Shown here piece by piece: positions 1-5,679 of a DNA stretch of 5,679 nt; positions within the stretch are counted from its first letter, which is position 1; every line of letters starts with the position of its first letter. Both the position numbers and the translations under genes were made by a program. The notes beneath the pieces were generated by a model that saw only the letters and a list, made by a program, of their open reading frames with translations, searched no databases and was not told where the DNA came from. Source of the DNA: a virus; IMG/VR virus record IMGVR_UViG_3300045988_010678, positions 1 through 5,679 of that record; one strand, written 5' to 3'.

Positions 1-55
1 CGATTCAACAAAATAAAAAACACTCAGCCCAGTATATATACTTGATAGTTACTGG
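1..55. repeat. Terminal direct repeat. Identical to 5625-5679, so this is the overlap of a circularly closed contig with a 5624-nt unit genome.
   Basis: A base-by-base comparison of cgattcaacaaaataaaaaacactcagcccagtatatatacttgatagttactgg at 1-55 and 5625-5679 gives an exact match. The window ends exactly at the end of the repeat. Confidence 0.95.
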
Positions 56-63
56 GCTGAGTG
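10..63 (-). terminator. Rho-independent terminator downstream of VP4
   Basis: There is a 14-bp perfect stem: 21-34 cactcagcccagta pairs with 50-63 tactgggctgagtg, with a 15-nt loop. On the minus strand it is followed immediately by TTTTTTATTTTG (complement of 9-20). It begins 10 nt after the VP4 stop at 73. Confidence 0.8.
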
Positions 64-72
64 ACACCAGGG

Positions 73-1092
73 CTAAAAAACGCCTTTTGCTTTGGACATC
101 TTCTTCTTCATGATTGCTTCTTTATCGGCCAGTTGTTCGGCATACTGTTTGTCAGTTTCCATGTTTCTTTCGATTAGGGATGCAATGGCTTTTTCTTGTC
201 GATACTGCTTGATTCTCCACGCCTTTTCAGGATTTTCAGCTTCCAGCTTTCGCCAATAATATTCTGGAATGGCTGCTCTCTTTCCGTTTGCCAGCTGGAT
301 ATATCCAAGTTGCCAGAGCCTTTCTTGGTGCTCTTGAAACCATGCGTCTCCGAGTCCTGGCTTTCGGCTCATCACGCAGAATGGCGGTCTGAGTCCCATT
401 TTCTTGTACTTGTCTTTGTCGTTTCCGTACAGCTTCTTGGTCACATACCCAGCTACGTAGTTATACGTTTCCGGCGTTGCTTGAGCTATATCTACTGTTC
501 CTTGTCCCCAGACTTTGACCAGTTTATCGCTCGTGTAGTGTCCAAACCTTGACAGTCTGTGAATCGGCTTTAAGTCGTCTGGATTCCACCCGTACAATAT
601 CATGTGATAGTGTGGTCTTGAGGTGTTGTCTCCATACTCTCCCGCTAGAAAGTACCTGAGAGGCCCGCTGACAGTCTTCCTGAGCCTTTTCATGAATAGC
701 TGTATATCTTCCACGCTTAAGGTTTGCACCGTTCTGGGACGCTCTGAGGCGTCTTTCCAGACGTTCACGCCTCCCTTGAAGATTTCCCCTGTTTCCGTGT
801 CCTGTGTTGGCACATGGTCGTCATCATAGGTTAGTGTGATGAACCAGATGCTTTCCTCGTTGTGACTGTATGCTTCTAGTTCCATTCTTGTGGCCCAATC
901 CTTGCGCTTGCGCAGTTTGCATCCTGTGCATTGTCCACATGGAATCATCATTACGTCTTTGCGGTACATCAAGTCTTCATACCGCATTTTGGTCTTATGT
1001 ATCTTGTTAAAAGAAGCGAGTGAGTATACTCGCCCACTCGCTTCTCTGTCGTGAGGTACATAAAACCGGATTAACGGTTTATTGCATCCCAT
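73..1092 (-). CDS. VP4: Replication initiator protein VP4 (HUH rolling-circle endonuclease, Microviridae gene A/VP4 family)
   Basis: 339-aa ORF with an ATG start. It carries RCR motif I FITLTY, motif II HUH as PHYHMILYG, and motif III with paired Tyr as YNYVAGYVTKK. It also has the N-terminal Cys cluster PCGQCTGCKLRKRKDWATR typical of gokushovirus VP4. The start follows the VP2 stop directly (TAAATG). Confidence 0.95.
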   Translation of the reverse strand: MGCNKPLIRFYVPHDREASGRVYSLASFNKIHKTKMRYEDLMYRKDVMMIPCGQCTGCKLRKRKDWATRMELEAYSHNEESIWFITLTYDDDHVPTQDTETGEIFKGGVNVWKDASERPRTVQTLSVEDIQLFMKRLRKTVSGPLRYFLAGEYGDNTSRPHYHMILYGWNPDDLKPIHRLSRFGHYTSDKLVKVWGQGTVDIAQATPETYNYVAGYVTKKLYGNDKDKYKKMGLRPPFCVMSRKPGLGDAWFQEHQERLWQLGYIQLANGKRAAIPEYYWRKLEAENPEKAWRIKQYRQEKAIASLIERNMETDKQYAEQLADKEAIMKKKMSKAKGVF

Positions 1093-1941
1093 TTATTTGA
1101 GTTTTCCTTTCCAAAATTCGATGTTTTTGCTTCCGATGAAGTCTCTCCCCGGTTTGTATTCGAGCTCATCTTTCTTCGGTTGTCTCCCTGCTCCTCCGCT
1201 GACACCACTGTTTAGGTTGCTGAGGTCGTTGAAAACGTCTTTGAATGCATTAAACGCTTTGTCTGCGCTTGTGTGTGACCAGCTTGTAGCGTCTCCGACT
1301 GCTTGTGCTGCGTTGTACCAGTTACTTTCGCTTTTGCTCCATGTGTTGTTGTGGTTCTGGCTTACTCCCAGAGCGCTTGCGCTAGCTGCACTGCTGCTTG
1401 CCAGACCCATGCTTGCCCCGCTGATAGTGGCTTGTGCGCCTCCTGGAGTGCTTGCTCCGCCCTGTTGGTATGCTAAGATAGGGTTGATGCCAGCTTTTTT
1501 CATGTCTTCTACAGCTCGCTGATAAGCTGTATCGCTCATTTGCTTTTGCCACGCTCTGGCTTTGGCTGCCTCTGCGCTGTTGTAGGCCATTGCTGCGTTG
1601 TTGCTTATCTGGTTATATACACCCTGAGTGATTGCCGCCATGGTGTTATAGCCCATTTGCTCGAATACGCTTTGACGGTTAAATTTCTGCTGGCTTTGCA
1701 TATTGCTTTGAATTGCCCCTAGCATACTGTTCCAGTCTTGCAGATTTTGTTCTCGGTTTACGCCGCTGGCGGCGCTGCTGTAGCCGCCTCCCTGGCTTGA
1801 ACTTTCGTTGTGCTGTGTGCTCCCTCCGTTGCTCTCCATCAGACTGCCGCCCAACACTTTGTTTATGAGTCCTCCGGCGATCGTCGGGAGTAGTTGTTTG
1901 CCGATTCCGAGTAGTGCGCTGCCGATTGCTGCTAACGCCAT
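1093..1941 (-). CDS. VP2: Minor capsid / DNA pilot protein VP2
   Basis: 282-aa ORF with an ATG start. It has a hydrophobic Gly/Ala/Leu-rich N-terminus (MALAAIGSALLGIGKQLLPTIAGGLINKVLGG) and a Ser/Gly/Gln/Asn-rich low-complexity body. It contains the conserved segment YQRAVEDMKKAGINPILAY, as I recall it from microvirus pilot proteins. It sits between VP1 and VP4, as in gokushoviruses. Confidence 0.85.
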   Translation of the reverse strand: MALAAIGSALLGIGKQLLPTIAGGLINKVLGGSLMESNGGSTQHNESSSQGGGYSSAASGVNREQNLQDWNSMLGAIQSNMQSQQKFNRQSVFEQMGYNTMAAITQGVYNQISNNAAMAYNSAEAAKARAWQKQMSDTAYQRAVEDMKKAGINPILAYQQGGASTPGGAQATISGASMGLASSSAASASALGVSQNHNNTWSKSESNWYNAAQAVGDATSWSHTSADKAFNAFKDVFNDLSNLNSGVSGGAGRQPKKDELEYKPGRDFIGSKNIEFWKGKLK

Positions 1942-1971
1942 AATAAAACAGCCCGGGGTTTTGCCCCGGGC
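1942..1971 (-). terminator. GC hairpin plus U-tract between VP1 and VP2 (attenuating terminator and/or translational structure)
   Basis: Stem 1951-1958 gcccgggg pairs with 1964-1971 ccccgggc, with a 5-nt loop. On the minus strand it is followed by TGTTTTATT and then directly by the VP2 ATG (1941). Confidence 0.6.
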
Positions 1972-1982
1972 TTCCCCCTTTC

Positions 1983-3662
1983 TTAGTGATGATCTACGAG
2001 TCCAGGAATACTGTACATCGGCATAGGTCTTACAGATGTGTTATCAATGACGGTGTCTATGATAAACTGCGGCTCGTTATCCACGGCCAGAGTCCTCTGG
2101 ATTTCGGAGTCTCCTTCCTTCATCCATGTCTGGCTTAATTTGGGAACTTCCTTGTAGTTGTCGCCGTAGTGCCAGCTGTCCAACGTCCCCGTTGCATTCG
2201 AACGGAACTTGCCGCTGATGCGGTTTGGCTTCATTCGGTACTCTGCCCAGGCTTCCTGATAACCAAAGGCCTGTTCATCTGTGCTCGTACCAGTGAGATA
2301 CAGCTCCTTCTTCAGAATGGCCTGCTCGCCCAGATTTGCGAAGACAGGATAGTAAAAGTCCAAATTGGTCTTGCGACTCCACATACGCTCCAAGCCCTGC
2401 TGGTAGGTATGGTCATGCCGGATGCAGCATACGCCGATAACAAAGCCGTGCTCTTCGAAGCTCTTGGTGAACATGTTCCCGTTGTACGGCGTAACACTGA
2501 TTGCCGCGGCGTTGCCCTGCGGACTTTCTTGCGTCGTGCCGCTGGTCTGGATGACCTGGCTCATGTTGATAGTGATGCGCGTACCGCCCAGGTACTCAGG
2601 AATTTGTACCGTTTTATCGCTGATTTTGGTATGGAACAGCGAATAAATCATCTCGCGGTAACGGCTGCCTCCGCGTGCTAACTGCTCGTAGTACTTTTGC
2701 ACCTGGAATGCCTGTCGCAGCTGGTTGATGGTCGTTGCTGTTACTGCGCTGAGGTCTGTGTAAAGCTTTTGGTCTACTCCTTCGTTTCCCGCTTCGTTGG
2801 ACCCGTAAATGTGCCATGTGTCACCCGAGTTTTCGCCTGTGGTTGTTTTGGGTTCTCCGACTATGGAATAGTTTTTGAAGTATACTGCATTTTCGTCGAT
2901 GACGCTACCGCTGTATGCTCTGATAGGTGCCTTGCCAGTCAGCGGAATGGTTACTGGTTCTCCCGACTTTTGTGGCGAAGGCATTGCGCTTGTGTAATAG
3001 TCGTGGTACTTGTTGACCGGAAGAGGTCTGCCGCCTGTGTATGCGTTCTGGAGAATATACTCCAAGTCCGGTGTTGCTGCGTCCATGCCCTTTGTTTCGT
3101 CGTCCGTGTAGTTTACGGTCGCGTCTGCATCGCTGTTGACGGCTGGATTGTCTACGTTCTGGTCTCGGAACCACTCCTGCCAGATCATGGCGTAGGCTCT
3201 AAACGGCAGTGCGTTAACGCTGAATGCGCTGTCAGTTCCTTTACTCACCTTGGTAGGAATGCCCATGTAGTCCATGATGCTTCCTTCGTACGGTGCCGGT
3301 TTGTCGGTCGAGCCAGTGACTTTGACCTGAGGAATGGTGTACTCCTGAGTCTGTGCCCACGGCTCGGTGTCGTTCTCGCCCATAAACCGCTTGAAGTTTT
3401 TCCAGATGATACGGCACGGTACGTTGAAGTAGTAAATATCCATGTAGCAGTTGTCCATAACTGGGAAGATAGGAGTTGTCATACGGATAATTGCTGCCTG
3501 GTCAATGCTGAAGGTATCGCCGGGTAACACTTCGTCCACATAGAACGGAATGAGCTGGCCTGCGTTCATGGTCAACTTGACGTCCTGCCGCCGTTTGAAG
3601 CGACTTCGCGTAATGTCCAGTCGCGGAACTTGGTTAAAACCTGCGTCTTTGTTCCTGTTCAT
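1983..3662 (-). CDS. VP1: Major capsid protein VP1 (Microviridae F/VP1 family)
   Basis: 559-aa ORF. It shows the N-terminal pattern FNQVPRLDITRSRF...NAGQLIPFYVDEVLPGDTF, the conserved core TINQLRQAFQVQKYYEQLARGGSRYREMIYSLF and a C-terminal PMPMYSIPGLVDHH. The SD sequence AAAGGAGGAA lies 9 nt upstream, and the start overlaps the VP3 stop as ATGA. Confidence 0.97.
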   Translation of the reverse strand: MNRNKDAGFNQVPRLDITRSRFKRRQDVKLTMNAGQLIPFYVDEVLPGDTFSIDQAAIIRMTTPIFPVMDNCYMDIYYFNVPCRIIWKNFKRFMGENDTEPWAQTQEYTIPQVKVTGSTDKPAPYEGSIMDYMGIPTKVSKGTDSAFSVNALPFRAYAMIWQEWFRDQNVDNPAVNSDADATVNYTDDETKGMDAATPDLEYILQNAYTGGRPLPVNKYHDYYTSAMPSPQKSGEPVTIPLTGKAPIRAYSGSVIDENAVYFKNYSIVGEPKTTTGENSGDTWHIYGSNEAGNEGVDQKLYTDLSAVTATTINQLRQAFQVQKYYEQLARGGSRYREMIYSLFHTKISDKTVQIPEYLGGTRITINMSQVIQTSGTTQESPQGNAAAISVTPYNGNMFTKSFEEHGFVIGVCCIRHDHTYQQGLERMWSRKTNLDFYYPVFANLGEQAILKKELYLTGTSTDEQAFGYQEAWAEYRMKPNRISGKFRSNATGTLDSWHYGDNYKEVPKLSQTWMKEGDSEIQRTLAVDNEPQFIIDTVIDNTSVRPMPMYSIPGLVDHH

Positions 3663-4138
3663 TCAGTGGCTTCCTCCTTTTTAGGCTCTTCAGGCTCTTC
3701 TTCCTGATAGATGCCCAGATTTTTTGCCCAGTCAACAGTTCCGAAACTTGCCACGAATTTATCGACGTCATTGTCGAACTTGAGTTTGATTTCCTTTGGG
3801 ATTTCATCCCAGATTTGCTCGGCCCGCAGCATGATGTTCTGAAGCTCCATCAGGTTTTCCGGCATCTCGGTTGCGTCTTGGAGTCCATTACCCATGTCTG
3901 GCACCAGTCTAGCTGCAAGGTCAGGGTCGATGGATGCCCGCCGGAGGATGTTTTCCAGCTTGGTCTCTTCCAGATAGCTGTCGATTTCTGCTTGCTGGTC
4001 GATGGTCTGGTCAAGCGTCAGCACTTTTTCGCCCTTCTTGTTGATTTGCCAAAGGTATGTCCGTCTGATGCTTTCTCCGGCTTCAGTGGCCTTTGCTGTT
4101 GCGGTTTCCCTGAAGTTACTTACTGAGCGATACGCCAT
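3659..4138 (-). CDS. VP3: Internal scaffolding protein VP3. The start is placed at the ATG at 4138, not the TTG at 4186 used by the ORF track.
   Basis: The ORF is in the gokushovirus VP3 position immediately upstream of VP1. The motif IPKEIKLKFDNDVDKFVASF resembles the conserved VP3 C-proximal motif, and the tail is acidic (YQEEEPEEPKKEEATE). The track start codon at 4184-4186 is TTG with no SD, whereas the ATG at 4136-4138 is preceded by AAGGAG with a 10-nt spacer. This gives a 159-aa product. Confidence 0.85.
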   Translation of the reverse strand: MAYRSVSNFRETATAKATEAGESIRRTYLWQINKKGEKVLTLDQTIDQQAEIDSYLEETKLENILRRASIDPDLAARLVPDMGNGLQDATEMPENLMELQNIMLRAEQIWDEIPKEIKLKFDNDVDKFVASFGTVDWAKNLGIYQEEEPEEPKKEEATE

Positions 4139-4352
4139 CGAAGATGTTCTCCTTTTCGTTCTCAAACAGGCCCGTTTTCTCGTCAAACTCTGCCAGGCGC
4201 ACTAACCGATAGTCGCTCGGAGTCTTGCTCATGATGTTCCGTTCATCAGTCAGCGCGATTTTGAAATTGCGTTCGGCCACTTTGTCGTCACGTTCGGTAA
4301 AGATGGTGATGTAACCCATCACGCATTTGTCGAAGATTCCGTATACGTTCAT
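4116..4352 (-). CDS. Small non-structural protein, VP5-like (product assignment from recollected family pattern only)
   Basis: 78-aa ORF with an ATG start, preceded by TAAGGAG and an 8-nt spacer. The pattern M.VY.IFD......I....D..A.R.F...........P.DY.L..L..FD..TG matches my memory of the gokushovirus ORF5/VP5 family. It lies just upstream of VP3, as VP5 does, and overlaps the VP3 start by 23 nt. Confidence 0.7.
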   Translation of the reverse strand: MNVYGIFDKCVMGYITIFTERDDKVAERNFKIALTDERNIMSKTPSDYRLVRLAEFDEKTGLFENEKENIFDGVSLSK

Positions 4353-4364
4353 ATGGTTGTCTCC

Positions 4365-4463
4365 TTACTTGAACCATTCTTTGATGATGTCGATTGCGAT
4401 TACAACTAATACTAACGCGCTTGCCAGAGCTGCCGTTGTGATTCCTGCAAATAGTACACTCAC
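4365..4463 (-). CDS. 32-aa single-pass transmembrane peptide (hypothetical; not in the ORF track)
   Basis: Hand translation from a GTG start gives (M)SVLFAGITTAALASALVLVVIAIDIIKEWFK followed by a stop, that is one hydrophobic helix plus an amphipathic tail. An SD-like GAGGGGG lies 9 nt upstream. The GTG overlaps the upstream ORF stop as GTGA. Its own TAA is embedded in the SD (TAAGGAG) of the next gene. Confidence 0.5.
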   Translation of the reverse strand: MSVLFAGITTAALASALVLVVIAIDIIKEWFK

Positions 4464-4561
4464 AGTCTGATGCCCCCTCTCATCGCTCCGCTTCCCAGGT
4501 TAATGGCCTTGGTCTTGCGTGCTGTCTTGTTGAAGATTTTTGCGTCTTTGGATTTTCGCAC
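4460..4561 (-). CDS. 33-aa highly basic peptide, candidate J/VP8-like DNA-binding packaging protein (not in the ORF track)
   Basis: Hand translation from the GTG at 4561 gives (M)RKSKDAKIFNKTARKTKAINLGSGAMRGGIRL followed by a stop. That is 10 K/R against 1 D. GAGGAG lies 4 nt upstream. An alternative in-frame GTG at 4579 would add MAKRSK. The C-terminal RGGIRL resembles the ...RGGIRF ends I recall for the chlamydiaphage and SpV4 ORF8 proteins. Confidence 0.5.
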   Translation of the reverse strand: MRKSKDAKIFNKTARKTKAINLGSGAMRGGIRL

Positions 4562-4562
4562 T

Positions 4563-4790
4563 TTACTCCTCTTTGCCACGGTTGATGTCCCTTCTGAGGA
4601 TTTCTACCTCAATTTCGTTCGCTGCCGCTTTTTTTCTAAACGCAAGGTCAACGTAATATTTTGCGTCTTCGATTGTTGCGGCCTTTCGAATCATACTGTA
4701 TGCGGCATCTATTGTCTTGTAGGTTTTCGTCAATTCCTGCATAAGGTTCTCGTCGGTCTGGTCTCTTACATTCCATGTTTTGTTCTCCAT
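4563..4790 (-). CDS. Hypothetical 75-aa protein (ORFan, predicted helical, charged)
   Basis: ATG start preceded by GGAGG with a 6-nt spacer. It is co-directional and tightly packed with its neighbours. I recognise no motif. Confidence 0.7.
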   Translation of the reverse strand: MENKTWNVRDQTDENLMQELTKTYKTIDAAYSMIRKAATIEDAKYYVDLAFRKKAAANEIEVEILRRDINRGKEE

Positions 4791-4791
4791 G

Positions 4792-4896
4792 TTAAGCCTC
4801 CGGTTCGTTTTCTGTTACTGCGTGGTAGATTTTGTCCAGCATTGCAAGGATTTTTTGGATGTTGTCAAACAGCGTTTTGATTTCTTGGAGAGTCAG
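4792..4896 (-). CDS. Possible 34-aa ORF with a non-canonical CTG start (tentative)
   Basis: An extended SD, GAAAGAGGTGA (complement of 4904-4914), has no ATG/GTG/TTG at usable spacing, but an in-frame CTG (4896) lies 9 nt after GAGG. The frame reads (M)TLQEIKTLFDNIQKILAMLDKIYHAVTENEPEA and ends in a TAA one base before the next ATG (TAAcATG). Confidence 0.3.
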   Translation of the reverse strand: MTLQEIKTLFDNIQKILAMLDKIYHAVTENEPEA

Positions 4897-4918
4897 AGCG
4901 ATTCACCTCTTTCGTAAA

Positions 4919-4947
4919 ATTATTTTTGTAAAAATAGAATTTGTGAG
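4919..4947 (-). promoter_or_regulatory. Putative sigma70-type promoter for the small-gene/structural operon
   Basis: On the minus strand: CTCACA (complement of 4942-4947), a 17-nt spacer, then AATAAT (complement of 4919-4924). It sits in an AT-rich gap just downstream of the 4985-5015 terminator and upstream of the strong SD at 4904-4914. The matches are only 4/6 and 5/6. Confidence 0.3.
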
Positions 4948-4984
4948 GAACACTTCTGTGCTGTTTAACTATTTGTTTTGTATC

Positions 4985-5015
4985 AAAAAAAAGGGGGATT
5001 GTCAACCCCCTTTTT
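4985..5015 (-). terminator. Rho-independent (potentially bidirectional) terminator ending the Cys-rich gene cassette
   Basis: The structure is A8 (4985-4992), GGGGG (4993-4997), an 8-nt loop, CCCCC (5006-5010) and T5 (5011-5015). On the minus strand the hairpin is followed by T8. The gene's stop codon (5002-5004) lies in the loop. Confidence 0.75.
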
Positions 5016-5184
5016 CCGGTCTTTTATTTCGTTCGTCGAGTTCCTTTTTGATTTCTTCGTATACGTATCTGCAACGTTTTCCTTCGACTTTGCATGGGCA
5101 GCTCTCACAATCCCCTTCACAATATTCGTATCTGTACTTCATGTAGATTAACTGTTTGTTACTTGTAAACCGTAAACTAGTCAT
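5002..5184 (-). CDS. 60-aa cysteine-rich hypothetical protein (C-x3-C-x2-C-x-C-x6-C, basic/acidic helical tail)
   Basis: ATG start preceded by AAGGAG with a 7-nt spacer. The sequence is MTSLRFTSNKQLIYMKYRYEYCEGDCESCPCKVEGKRCRYVYEEIKKELDERNKRPEKGG. The gene has its own upstream promoter candidate and its own downstream terminator. Confidence 0.75.
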   Translation of the reverse strand: MTSLRFTSNKQLIYMKYRYEYCEGDCESCPCKVEGKRCRYVYEEIKKELDERNKRPEKGG

Positions 5185-5214
5185 ATTGGTTCTCCTTTAC
5201 TGTGAAGCAGCTTG

Positions 5215-5243
5215 ATTGTACCGTATTTTTAGAAGAAAGTCGA
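5215..5243 (-). promoter_or_regulatory. Putative sigma70-type promoter for the Cys-rich gene
   Basis: On the minus strand: TCGACT (complement of 5238-5243), a 17-nt spacer, then TACAAT (complement of 5215-5220). The -10 element lies about 30 nt upstream of the ATG at 5184. Confidence 0.4.
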
Positions 5244-5284
5244 GATTTTTTTGAAAAAAAGTTAGAAGAATTTTGCATTGAAGG

Positions 5285-5322
5285 TCATGCGCTAGGCGCG
5301 GTGCGCCGTACGAAGAGCATGA
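5285..5322. repeat. GC-rich nested inverted repeat in the non-coding region
   Basis: The outer arms are tcatgc (5285-5290) and gcatga (5317-5322). The inner hairpin is ggcgc (5295-5299) pairing with gcgcc (5303-5307), with a 3-nt loop. Confidence 0.6.
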
Positions 5323-5360
5323 TGTAACTTTCCGGCCAGCTGCCGAACTGCCTCTAATTG

Positions 5361-5538
5361 AGTTTTCAACACTTTCAACACTTTCAACAGGTTTTCCACA
5401 AAAAGTTGCACAAATGGTTTTGTGCATATTGCTACACTTTCAACAATTCAACAAGTTTTCAACAAAGTTTTCAACATCAAAATGATTCATAAAATATTGT
5501 TCCATGGATAAAAATTTATAGTTTTCAACATTTCAACA
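5361..5538 (+). repeat. Iteron-like array of nine same-orientation TTCAACA copies, with a tenth at 5628-5634 (equivalent to 4-10)
   Basis: TTCAACA starts at 5365, 5374, 5383, 5439, 5447, 5458, 5470, 5524 and 5532. There is a perfect 9-nt tandem tttcaacac/tttcaacac/tttcaacag at 5364-5390. The 11-mer AGTTTTCAACA occurs at 5361, 5454, 5466 and 5520. The variant GGTTTTCCACA is at 5390-5400. Confidence 0.9.
5407..5426. other. Small perfect hairpin within the iteron region
   Basis: tgcacaaa (5407-5414) pairs with tttgtgca (5419-5426), with a 4-nt loop tggt. Confidence 0.6.
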
Positions 5539-5583
5539 CTCCCTACTACTGCTACTACAACAAGTAAATAATAAAATAATAAA

Positions 5584-5629
5584 AATCGTTCGTGCGCGTG
5601 CGCGATTTCGTGCGCGTGCGCGAACGATT
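5584..5629. repeat. GC-rich composite element: a tandem 17-nt direct repeat that also forms an imperfect 21-position inverted repeat
   Basis: ttcgtgcgcgtgcgcga occurs at 5589-5605 and 5607-5623. Each copy contains (CGTGCG)2CG, which is strictly alternating pyrimidine/purine. The outer arms aatcgttcg (5584-5592) and cgaacgatt (5621-5629) are perfectly complementary. The element is flanked by AT-rich tracts at 5562-5583 and 5631-5644. Confidence 0.9.
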
Positions 5630-5679
5630 CAACAAAATAAAAAACACTCAGCCCAGTATATATACTTGATAGTTACTGG
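5625..5679. repeat. Second copy of the terminal overlap (identical to 1-55)
   Basis: Exact 55/55 identity with the window start. Confidence 0.95.

Follow-up and report, generated by a model that had tools for sequence, protein, structure and literature searches.

A repeat module of gut gokushoviruses with the layout of a bacterial chromosome-origin unwinding unit

We analysed a 5,679-nt stretch of viral DNA (positions 1 to 5,679 of IMG/VR record IMGVR_UViG_3300045988_010678; hereafter the window) whose intergenic region carries a dense array of the heptamer TTCAACA. Judged from sequence, this array probably represents about ten co-oriented DnaA boxes in a module of about 211 bp that is built like the basal unwinding system of chromosome origins. 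The module occupies 5363-5574 of the window, and its AT-rich tract runs on to 5586. Gokushoviruses rank with the most abundant DNA viruses in the mammalian gut; to our knowledge, next to nothing is established about how they replicate, and none of them has a defined origin. The type of element found here is known from bacterial chromosome origins, and within the open-access literature it is apparently new in Microviridae: we found there no report on Microviridae or gokushoviruses with DnaA boxes or trios, and no DnaA-trio in any phage.

The genome and its TTCAACA array

The window is a gokushovirus genome, and its nearest GenBank records are faecal gokushoviruses from human, pig and monkey. 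When the window was compared with itself, bases 1-55 proved identical to 5625-5679; this 55-nt terminal direct repeat indicates an assembly overlap, so that the window represents one circular genome of 5624 nt. Every recognisable gene lies on the - strand, with GGAG-type Shine-Dalgarno sequences in five of the seven genes, and the non-coding region extends from about 5185 across the junction to 72. The genes are the following.

1092..73, - strand: VP4/Rep (PF23343)
1941..1093, - strand: VP2
3662..1983, - strand: VP1 (Phage_F)
4138..3659, - strand: VP3 scaffold
4352..4116, - strand: VP5
4790..4563, - strand: orf75, a small ORF without a family, with a good Shine-Dalgarno site
5184..5002, - strand: orf60, a Cys-rich small ORF without a family, with a good Shine-Dalgarno site

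The orf60/orf75 stretch is a variable small-ORF region of these phages. A further frame, ORF76 (5427..5197), overlaps the left end of the array and was rejected as a gene: its counterparts in relatives range from 0 to 134 aa, and it has neither a ribosome-binding site nor a family. To the left of the module, 5285-5350 forms a GC-rich block with hairpin potential (TCATGCGCT…AGAGCATGA), which is kept in the window's clade and in three further genomes (L027-L029, VP4 identity 42-43%); other relatives have another GC-rich block in its place. Among the exact VP4 protein matches no integrated form was found, all of them being contigs of about 5.6 kb.

An exact search on both strands returned 12 matches to TTCAACA in the window, starting at 4, 5365, 5374, 5383, 5439, 5447, 5458, 5470, 5524, 5532 and 5628 on the + strand and at 4528 on the - strand. 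Because the ends of the circular genome overlap in the assembly, the match at 4-10 is the same copy as that at 5628-5634, and the circle has in truth 10 + strand copies and one - strand copy. As all genes lie on the - strand, the coding strand reads the repeat as TGTTGAA. Across 200 dinucleotide-preserving shuffles the heptamer occurred 1.09 times on average and 6 times at most, and none of the 200 reached 12. A k-mer count further made it the commonest 7-mer of the genome.

The first-pass annotation had described nine copies in a single orientation within 5365-5538, and the exact search finds precisely these, in a window where about one copy would be expected; the k-mer enrichment scan that it had proposed places TTCAACA first among all 7-mers, far beyond the shuffles. 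Its finer description holds as well, namely four copies extended to AGTTTTCAACA (at 5361, 5454, 5466 and 5520), a 9-nt tandem (5363-5389), neighbour spacings of 8-12 nt (start to start 9, 9, 11, then 8, 11, 12, then 8) and a single inverted copy elsewhere in the genome, at 4528 on the - strand, with no other. The tenth copy that it had placed at 5628-5634 is present, with the correction that it is also listed at 4-10 through the end overlap; this copy is not kept in relatives. The variant TTTTCCACA at 5392-5400 is a further member of the array.

Searches with general collections added little to this picture. At a permissive threshold, Rfam gave two sub-threshold chance matches over the whole window, none of them within the array, and a plasmid collection searched in distant mode held nothing matching 5355-5580.

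Box profile and architecture of the module

The elements of the module, with its two neighbours to the right, are listed below; the DnaA-box and trio labels are putative.

5363..5400, + strand: DnaA-box cluster 1, with TTTTCAACA at 5363, CTTTCAACA at 5372, CTTTCAACA at 5381 and TTTTCCACA at 5392
5407..5426: perfect 8-bp palindrome TGCACAAA-N4-TTTGTGCA, between clusters 1 and 2
5437..5476, + strand: DnaA-box cluster 2, with CTTTCAACA at 5437, AATTCAACA at 5445, TTTTCAACA at 5456 and TTTTCAACA at 5468
5477..5521: AT-rich spacer, fixed in length and variable in sequence
5522..5538, + strand: tandem box pair, TTTTCAACA (5522-5530) abutting the 8-bp TTTCAACA (5531-5538)
5539..5542, + strand: C-rich 4-bp spacer CTCC, at the GC-cluster position
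5543..5557, + strand: five DnaA-trio-like trinucleotides, CTA CTA CTG CTA CTA
5558..5565, + strand: CAACAAGT, directly after the trios (the - strand reads ACTTGTTG)
5562..5586: AT-rich tract AAGTAAATAATAAAATAATAAAAAT, the predicted unwinding element
5584..5629: GC-rich alternating purine-pyrimidine quasi-palindrome (TTCGTGCGCGTGCGCGA twice), a neighbour of the cassette and not part of it
23..61 (also 5647-5679 and the junction): hairpin with a stem of 12-14 bp, right after the VP4 stop codon

Taken with its flanks, the repeat reads TT(T/A)TC(A/C)ACA, and its copies are mostly TTTTCAACA or CTTTCAACA. We reduced 145 module-bearing microvirus genomes to 74 non-redundant modules and profiled six aligned box positions. 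The profile (T.48 T.82 T.88/A.11 T.99 C.93 A.86/C.14 A.99 C.98 A.84) corresponds to TTWTCMACA and agrees with the Mollicutes DnaA-box consensus TT(A/T)TC(C/A)ACA (PMC3322544). Over the 74 modules, box variation is essentially limited to positions 1, 3, 6 and 9; one box, for instance, appears across relatives as TTTTCAACA (37), as the canonical TTATCCACA (16), as TTTTCCACA (5) and as TTATCAACA (2). The permitted changes are the degenerate positions of the DnaA-box consensus, which is the strongest indication that DnaA would be the reader of the repeats. Nine boxes within at most one mismatch of the consensus lie in 5363-5538, and the largest such cluster in 500 shuffles had four. Cluster 2 is the most conserved block of the module, and its box at 5456 reads TTATCCACA in 16 of the 74 non-redundant relatives. 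The box at 5392 matches TTWTNCACA exactly; most of the others carry A at position 6, a mismatch to this E. coli-type consensus. In E. coli terms most of the phage boxes would be weak sites, and we count this against the DnaA reading.

In the basal unwinding system, a pair of DnaA boxes steers DnaA onto adjacent 3'-GAT-5' trios by the unwinding site, and under the published search rule a box must be followed within 16 bp (spacer peak 10-13) by three or more trios of the form 3'-NAN-5' (PMC8287927). The phage unit conforms to this rule. On the + strand, 5522-5586 reads TTTTCAACA, TTTCAACA, CTCC, CTA CTA CTG CTA CTA, CAACAAG and TAAATAATAAAATAATAAAAAT. The box at 5522 has one mismatch to TTWTNCACA and none to TT(A/T)TC(C/A)ACA, where the rule allows two. 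The second, weaker box at 5531-5538 has the same orientation, toward the trios, and reads TTTCAACA or TTTCCACA in relatives. From the upstream box to the first trio there are 12 bp (the 8-bp box plus CTCC), as in most relatives scored, and the spacer 4-mer is GC-rich in most relatives, not all (GCCC, GTGC, ACCT, TACT). The trios read 3'-GAT GAT GAC GAT GAT-5' on the - strand; across the 74 non-redundant modules only trio 4 varies, trios 1-3 and 5 being constant or almost so. The AT-rich tract at 5562-5586, which begins inside the last trios, has the lowest stability of any 25-mer in the genome, and in relatives the AT content of the next 12 nt has a median of 0.96. A strict architecture scan hit the module and no other place in each genome in which the unit scored, and it hit nothing in 500 dinucleotide shuffles of the window.

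Two features of the unit count against the DnaA reading. In some relatives no more than about 13-15 nt of AT-rich sequence follow the trios, and CAACAAGT is almost invariant over the 74 non-redundant modules, which exceeds what the degenerate trio rule needs and is not explained by a DnaA unwinding model.

We compared the phage unit with published bacterial ones, whose tables (Tables S1 and S2 of PMC8287927) are given 3'→5' and were converted to the top strand here. The B. subtilis unit consists of TTATCCACA, AATCCACA, GGCC, CTACTATTACTTCTACTA and TTTTTTATA with a spacer of 12, the part after GGCC beginning CTACTATTAC, and the C. botulinum unit consists of TTATTAACA, TATCAACA, AGCC and CTACTACTACTACTACTA, that is (CTA)6, again with a spacer of 12 (PMC8287927). 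The B. subtilis trio strand is independently given as 5'-CTACTATTACTTCTACTA (PMC10201434), and the C. difficile trio as 5'-CACCTACTACTATTACTACTATGA (PMC7561715). Like the B. subtilis incC boxes 6/7 with their trios and the predicted C. botulinum and C. difficile oriC2 units, the phage unit has a co-oriented pair of 9 and 8 bp, a 4-bp GC-type spacer, a 12-bp register, CTA-type trios with matching strand and direction, an AT-rich tract immediately past them and more boxes upstream at a fixed distance. Unlike them, it sits on a 5.6-kb ssDNA phage with its own rolling-circle Rep and not by dnaA/dnaN, all ten of its boxes are co-oriented and mostly TTTTCAACA, and CAACAAGT is invariant past its trios. 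The phage element is oriC-like, not an oriC: an oriC lies on a chromosome, typically near dnaA and dnaN, and is where chromosome replication starts, whereas this element lies on a 5624-nt phage genome between VP4 and the small-ORF block.

The distance between the upstream boxes and the trios is equally regular. Cluster 2 lies exactly 88 nt from the trios in 114 of the 145 genomes, and the constancy of this distance despite sequence drift points to a geometric constraint, for example helical phasing of the upstream boxes, as described for the upstream boxes of B. subtilis (PMC6669920). The spacer at 5477-5521 has a central palindrome, CCATGG (5502-5507) in the window and of the AACGTT type in most relatives, and may be a site for a DNA-bending protein.

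Some other host protein, such as a response regulator or a nucleoid protein, might instead read the TTCAACA direct repeats, with the resemblance to DnaA boxes being coincidental. The departure of most copies from the E. coli consensus at position 6 would fit such a reader, as would (TTCAACAA)n arrays upstream of unrelated Bacteroidota genes, which show that the word can serve otherwise. Yet the variants in relatives fall exactly on the degenerate positions of the DnaA consensus, including the switches to TTATCCACA, and the full unit agrees position by position with the published units and arises in none of the 500 shuffles, so that we regard this alternative as improbable. Among the three readings that the first-pass annotation had offered for the array (VP4, a host protein such as DnaA, or the Cys-rich protein), the box profile and the layout of the unwinding unit favour host DnaA as the putative reader.

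Spread, orientation and inversion

The module occurs in more than 119 IMG/VR contigs, all of 4-6.2 kb, and in 145 of the 147 genomes with VP1 and VP4 homologues, at VP4 identities of 32-100%. Its nucleotide identity is 75-90% even where protein identity is 34-55%, and the position of the array is kept in 20 of 20 close relatives, which answers the suggestion that relatives be aligned. Three arrangements were seen.

TTCAACA on the noncoding strand, downstream of VP4: 109 genomes, VP4 identity to the window 41-100%
TTCAACA on the coding strand, between VP2 and VP4: 30 genomes, VP4 identity 32-38%
TTCAACA on the coding strand, downstream of VP4: 6 genomes, VP4 identity 45-56%

Independence of orientation can be seen directly in one pair of genomes (L030 and L023), in which a 211-bp segment is exactly inverted in place with both flanks collinear. 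The inverted segment spans the first box (TTTTCAACAC…) to …CAACAAGTTATATAATA, equivalent to 5363-5574 in the window; one breakpoint is therefore the left end of cluster 1, and of the AT-rich tract only the first ~10 nt lie within the invertible cassette. The occurrence of both orientations, together with the in-place inversion, makes it unlikely that the module acts strand-specifically as single-stranded DNA or as a fixed promoter. Since the orientation of the hairpin at 23-61 is fixed while the module inverts, the module is independent of the packaged or transcribed strand and most likely acts on duplex DNA. A dif-type site for XerCD, of the kind associated with temperate gokushoviruses, was considered and rejected, as even the closest match to dif of E. 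coli or B. subtilis differed from it at 11 of 28 positions.

These arrangements bear on the possibility that the module is a complementary-strand origin, that is, a single-stranded structure for host primase or primosome as in G4 or phiX174. CTA repeats are preferred initiation triplets of some Gram-positive primases, and those of the module, in a non-coding region, would suit such enzymes. On neither strand, however, does the module fold better as a single strand than shuffles (z +0.75 and +1.14), the only part that folds being the small 8-bp palindrome at 5407-5426, and stable conserved hairpins are absent from it. Moreover, the module is inverted relative to the genes and the hairpin in 36 of the 145 genomes, so that, if the packaged strand is fixed, the module strand within it would be the opposite one in some of the phages. 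We give a complementary-strand origin very little credence.

The same data speak to phage-encoded readers, with the repeats serving either as iterons for VP4, the Cys-rich 60-aa ORF or another small ORF, in the manner of plasmid or CRESS Reps, or as operators. The array does lie in a large intergenic region with an AT-rich tract adjoining and a hairpin about 90 nt off. But the box is constant over VP4 identities of 32-100% and the cassette moves separately, so that there is no co-variation with VP4, as the first-pass annotation had proposed to look for; VP4 binding sites are disfavoured because the box sequence is kept even at VP4 identities of 32-55% and the cassette is both inverted and relocated. 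Operators of the Cys-rich ORF fare no better, since orf60 has a homologue in only 8 of the 145 module-bearing genomes; orf75 has one in 93 of the 145, and ORF76 is not conserved. A plasmid-type initiator, looked for among the encoded proteins of the window, was absent. Rep iterons would keep a fixed orientation beside a nick-site stem-loop, whereas here the hairpin is constant and the module is found both ways round. A phage-protein reader is accordingly very improbable in our estimate: what stands of the first-pass proposal is a non-random, origin-like array beside an AT-rich tract, and what falls is its framing as plasmid- or CRESS-type Rep iterons.

The hairpin itself is a neighbour of the module, not a part of it. 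Its loop, TATATACTTGATAGT on the + (noncoding) strand, carries TACTTGAT and is invariant, while the stems differ with compensatory changes; it was found in 112 of the 115 genomes in which the module follows VP4. The AT-rich end of the module faces the conserved hairpin in 139 of the 145 genomes, and a T-run follows the hairpin on the - (coding) strand. The hairpin may be the VP4 nick site, for which it is a better candidate than the array, and/or a transcription terminator. A comparable structure in Chlamydia phage Chp2 is a 14-bp intergenic hairpin with the loop TCTACTTGATC, on the coding strand in that case.

The Rep of phiX174, a member of the same virus family with a homologous HUH Rep, cuts between CAACTTG and ATA, and the phiX174 origin is a 30-bp gpA recognition sequence, CAACTTG and, past the cut, ATATTAATAAC, which lies inside gene A and has no DnaA boxes. 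The ACTTG motif of phiX174 is found in this genome too, both in the hairpin loop (23-61) and in the - strand reading of 5558-5565, where ACTTGTTG resembles both the hairpin-loop motif and the phiX174 cleavage site; the TTCAACA array, on the other hand, has no phiX174 counterpart. The putative VP4 cuts would be TACTTG|ATAG in the hairpin loop (40-49, + strand) or ACTTG|TTG (5565-5558, - strand). Since ACTTG, as the candidate site of VP4 cleavage, lies on the noncoding strand in this clade, these phages might package the antisense strand.

The quasi-palindrome at 5584-5629 lies between the AT-rich tract and the hairpin, and could form Z-DNA or a cruciform; relatives have (CG)n or CGTG runs there. 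In the genome with the inverted cassette (L030), it stays with the hairpin and not with the cassette.

Neither a box cluster nor an unwinding unit was found in SpV4, Chp2, phiMH2K or the further genome L021. Their lack of the module marks it as an acquired accessory of a large gut clade and not as the family's basic origin.

Possible role, host and wider occurrence

From this anatomy we infer a mechanism in which host DnaA would fill the three box clusters on the double-stranded replicative form. The terminal pair (5522-5538) would place a DnaA-ATP oligomer, which would extend over the C-rich spacer onto the - strand trios and melt the adjacent AT-rich tract. The resulting bubble could be used in either of two ways: host helicase and primase might load on it, so that the replicative form would be copied in a DnaA-dependent, theta-type or primed manner, or it might present single-stranded DNA to the phage Rep, VP4. 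Tentatively, and with clearly less confidence than we place in the box assignment, we suggest that the module is a portable, orientation-independent unit of a gut gokushovirus clade that starts replication of the double-stranded form through the host initiator, in parallel with or upstream of VP4 rolling circle.

If true, this would mean that a virus borrows the chromosome's origin-opening device and not just host polymerases. Phage DNA synthesis would then be tied to the DnaA-ATP cell-cycle state of the host, and plasmid-like persistence of a 'lytic' microvirus could follow. The module also gives direct tests a short stretch of defined DNA and a specific host protein to work with, and its 211 bp, tried by evolution both ways round, would be a natural minimal origin cassette that could inform work on minimal bacterial origins.

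The boxes could also bind DnaA without the module being an origin. As a sink, the module would titrate DnaA and thereby stall host initiation or de-repress DnaA-controlled genes; as a switch, it would let DnaA regulate phage transcription. E. coli datA, a DnaA-box cluster outside oriC, titrates DnaA in this way. With about ten boxes on each copy, a multicopy replicative form would suit a sink, and the module lies upstream of the first gene block in 109 of the 145 genomes. Neither function, however, needs trios, a GC spacer and an AT-rich tract in a 12-bp register, yet these are the most conserved parts. As far as we know, datA lacks a trio and AT-rich unwinding unit in register, and the phage module differs from it in having one. 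The cassette is found both ways round and also between VP2 and VP4, and in a promoter/terminator scan promoter-like sites in the region were no commoner than in shuffles. A possible role in pure titration or regulation fails to explain the conserved trios and the register, and we consider the sink or switch unlikely, though less so than the other alternatives weighed above.

Other small circles carry DnaA boxes beside an AT-rich region, among them oriC plasmids or minichromosomes, RK2 oriV and P1 oriR. Origins of the RK2 oriV and P1 oriR type have one to four DnaA boxes together with iterons for their own initiator. In contrast, the phage has no such initiator and carries a whole unit of the chromosomal type, trios included.

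The host is probably a Firmicute, perhaps clostridial, because five of the seven genes have GGAG-type Shine-Dalgarno sites and the closest published unit is clostridial; boxes of the type seen in Clostridia, together with strong Shine-Dalgarno sites, thus hint at the host group. Two module-bearing contigs had been binned into Prevotella and Bacteroides MAGs, binning being unreliable for 5-kb contigs.

No chromosome origin with both conserved blocks at this spacing turned up among 185,579 bacterial species genomes, which gives no support to a capture of the module from a host origin. The scan gave 13 matches, of which two were microvirus-sized contigs and the rest unrelated (TTCAACAA)n arrays; ten of the 13 genome matches to the box-pair pattern were in Bacteroidota. 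These (TTCAACAA)n arrays are tandem, of 3-12 units and sometimes in inverted pairs (L037-L040, Bacteroidota MAG contigs), and they immediately precede unrelated genes in genomes of Bacteroidales and Cytophagales.

Similar units were seen in viral contigs of 7-160 kb from IMG/VR (L167, L174, L208 and others of L166-L209). The word TTATCCACA with CTACTACTA 9-14 nt after it was present in 44 viral contigs scanned out in this way, where a rough estimate put chance at about 10, and by eye more than 20 of the 44 show the full architecture of tandem box, GC cluster, CTA trios and AT-rich tract. The neighbouring ORFs checked there encode a phosphoesterase, an ExoX-like protein, a cell-wall hydrolase and family-less proteins, with no dnaA or dnaN among them. 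These viral contigs suggest that chromosome-type unwinding units may be more frequent in phage and provirus DNA than has been described.
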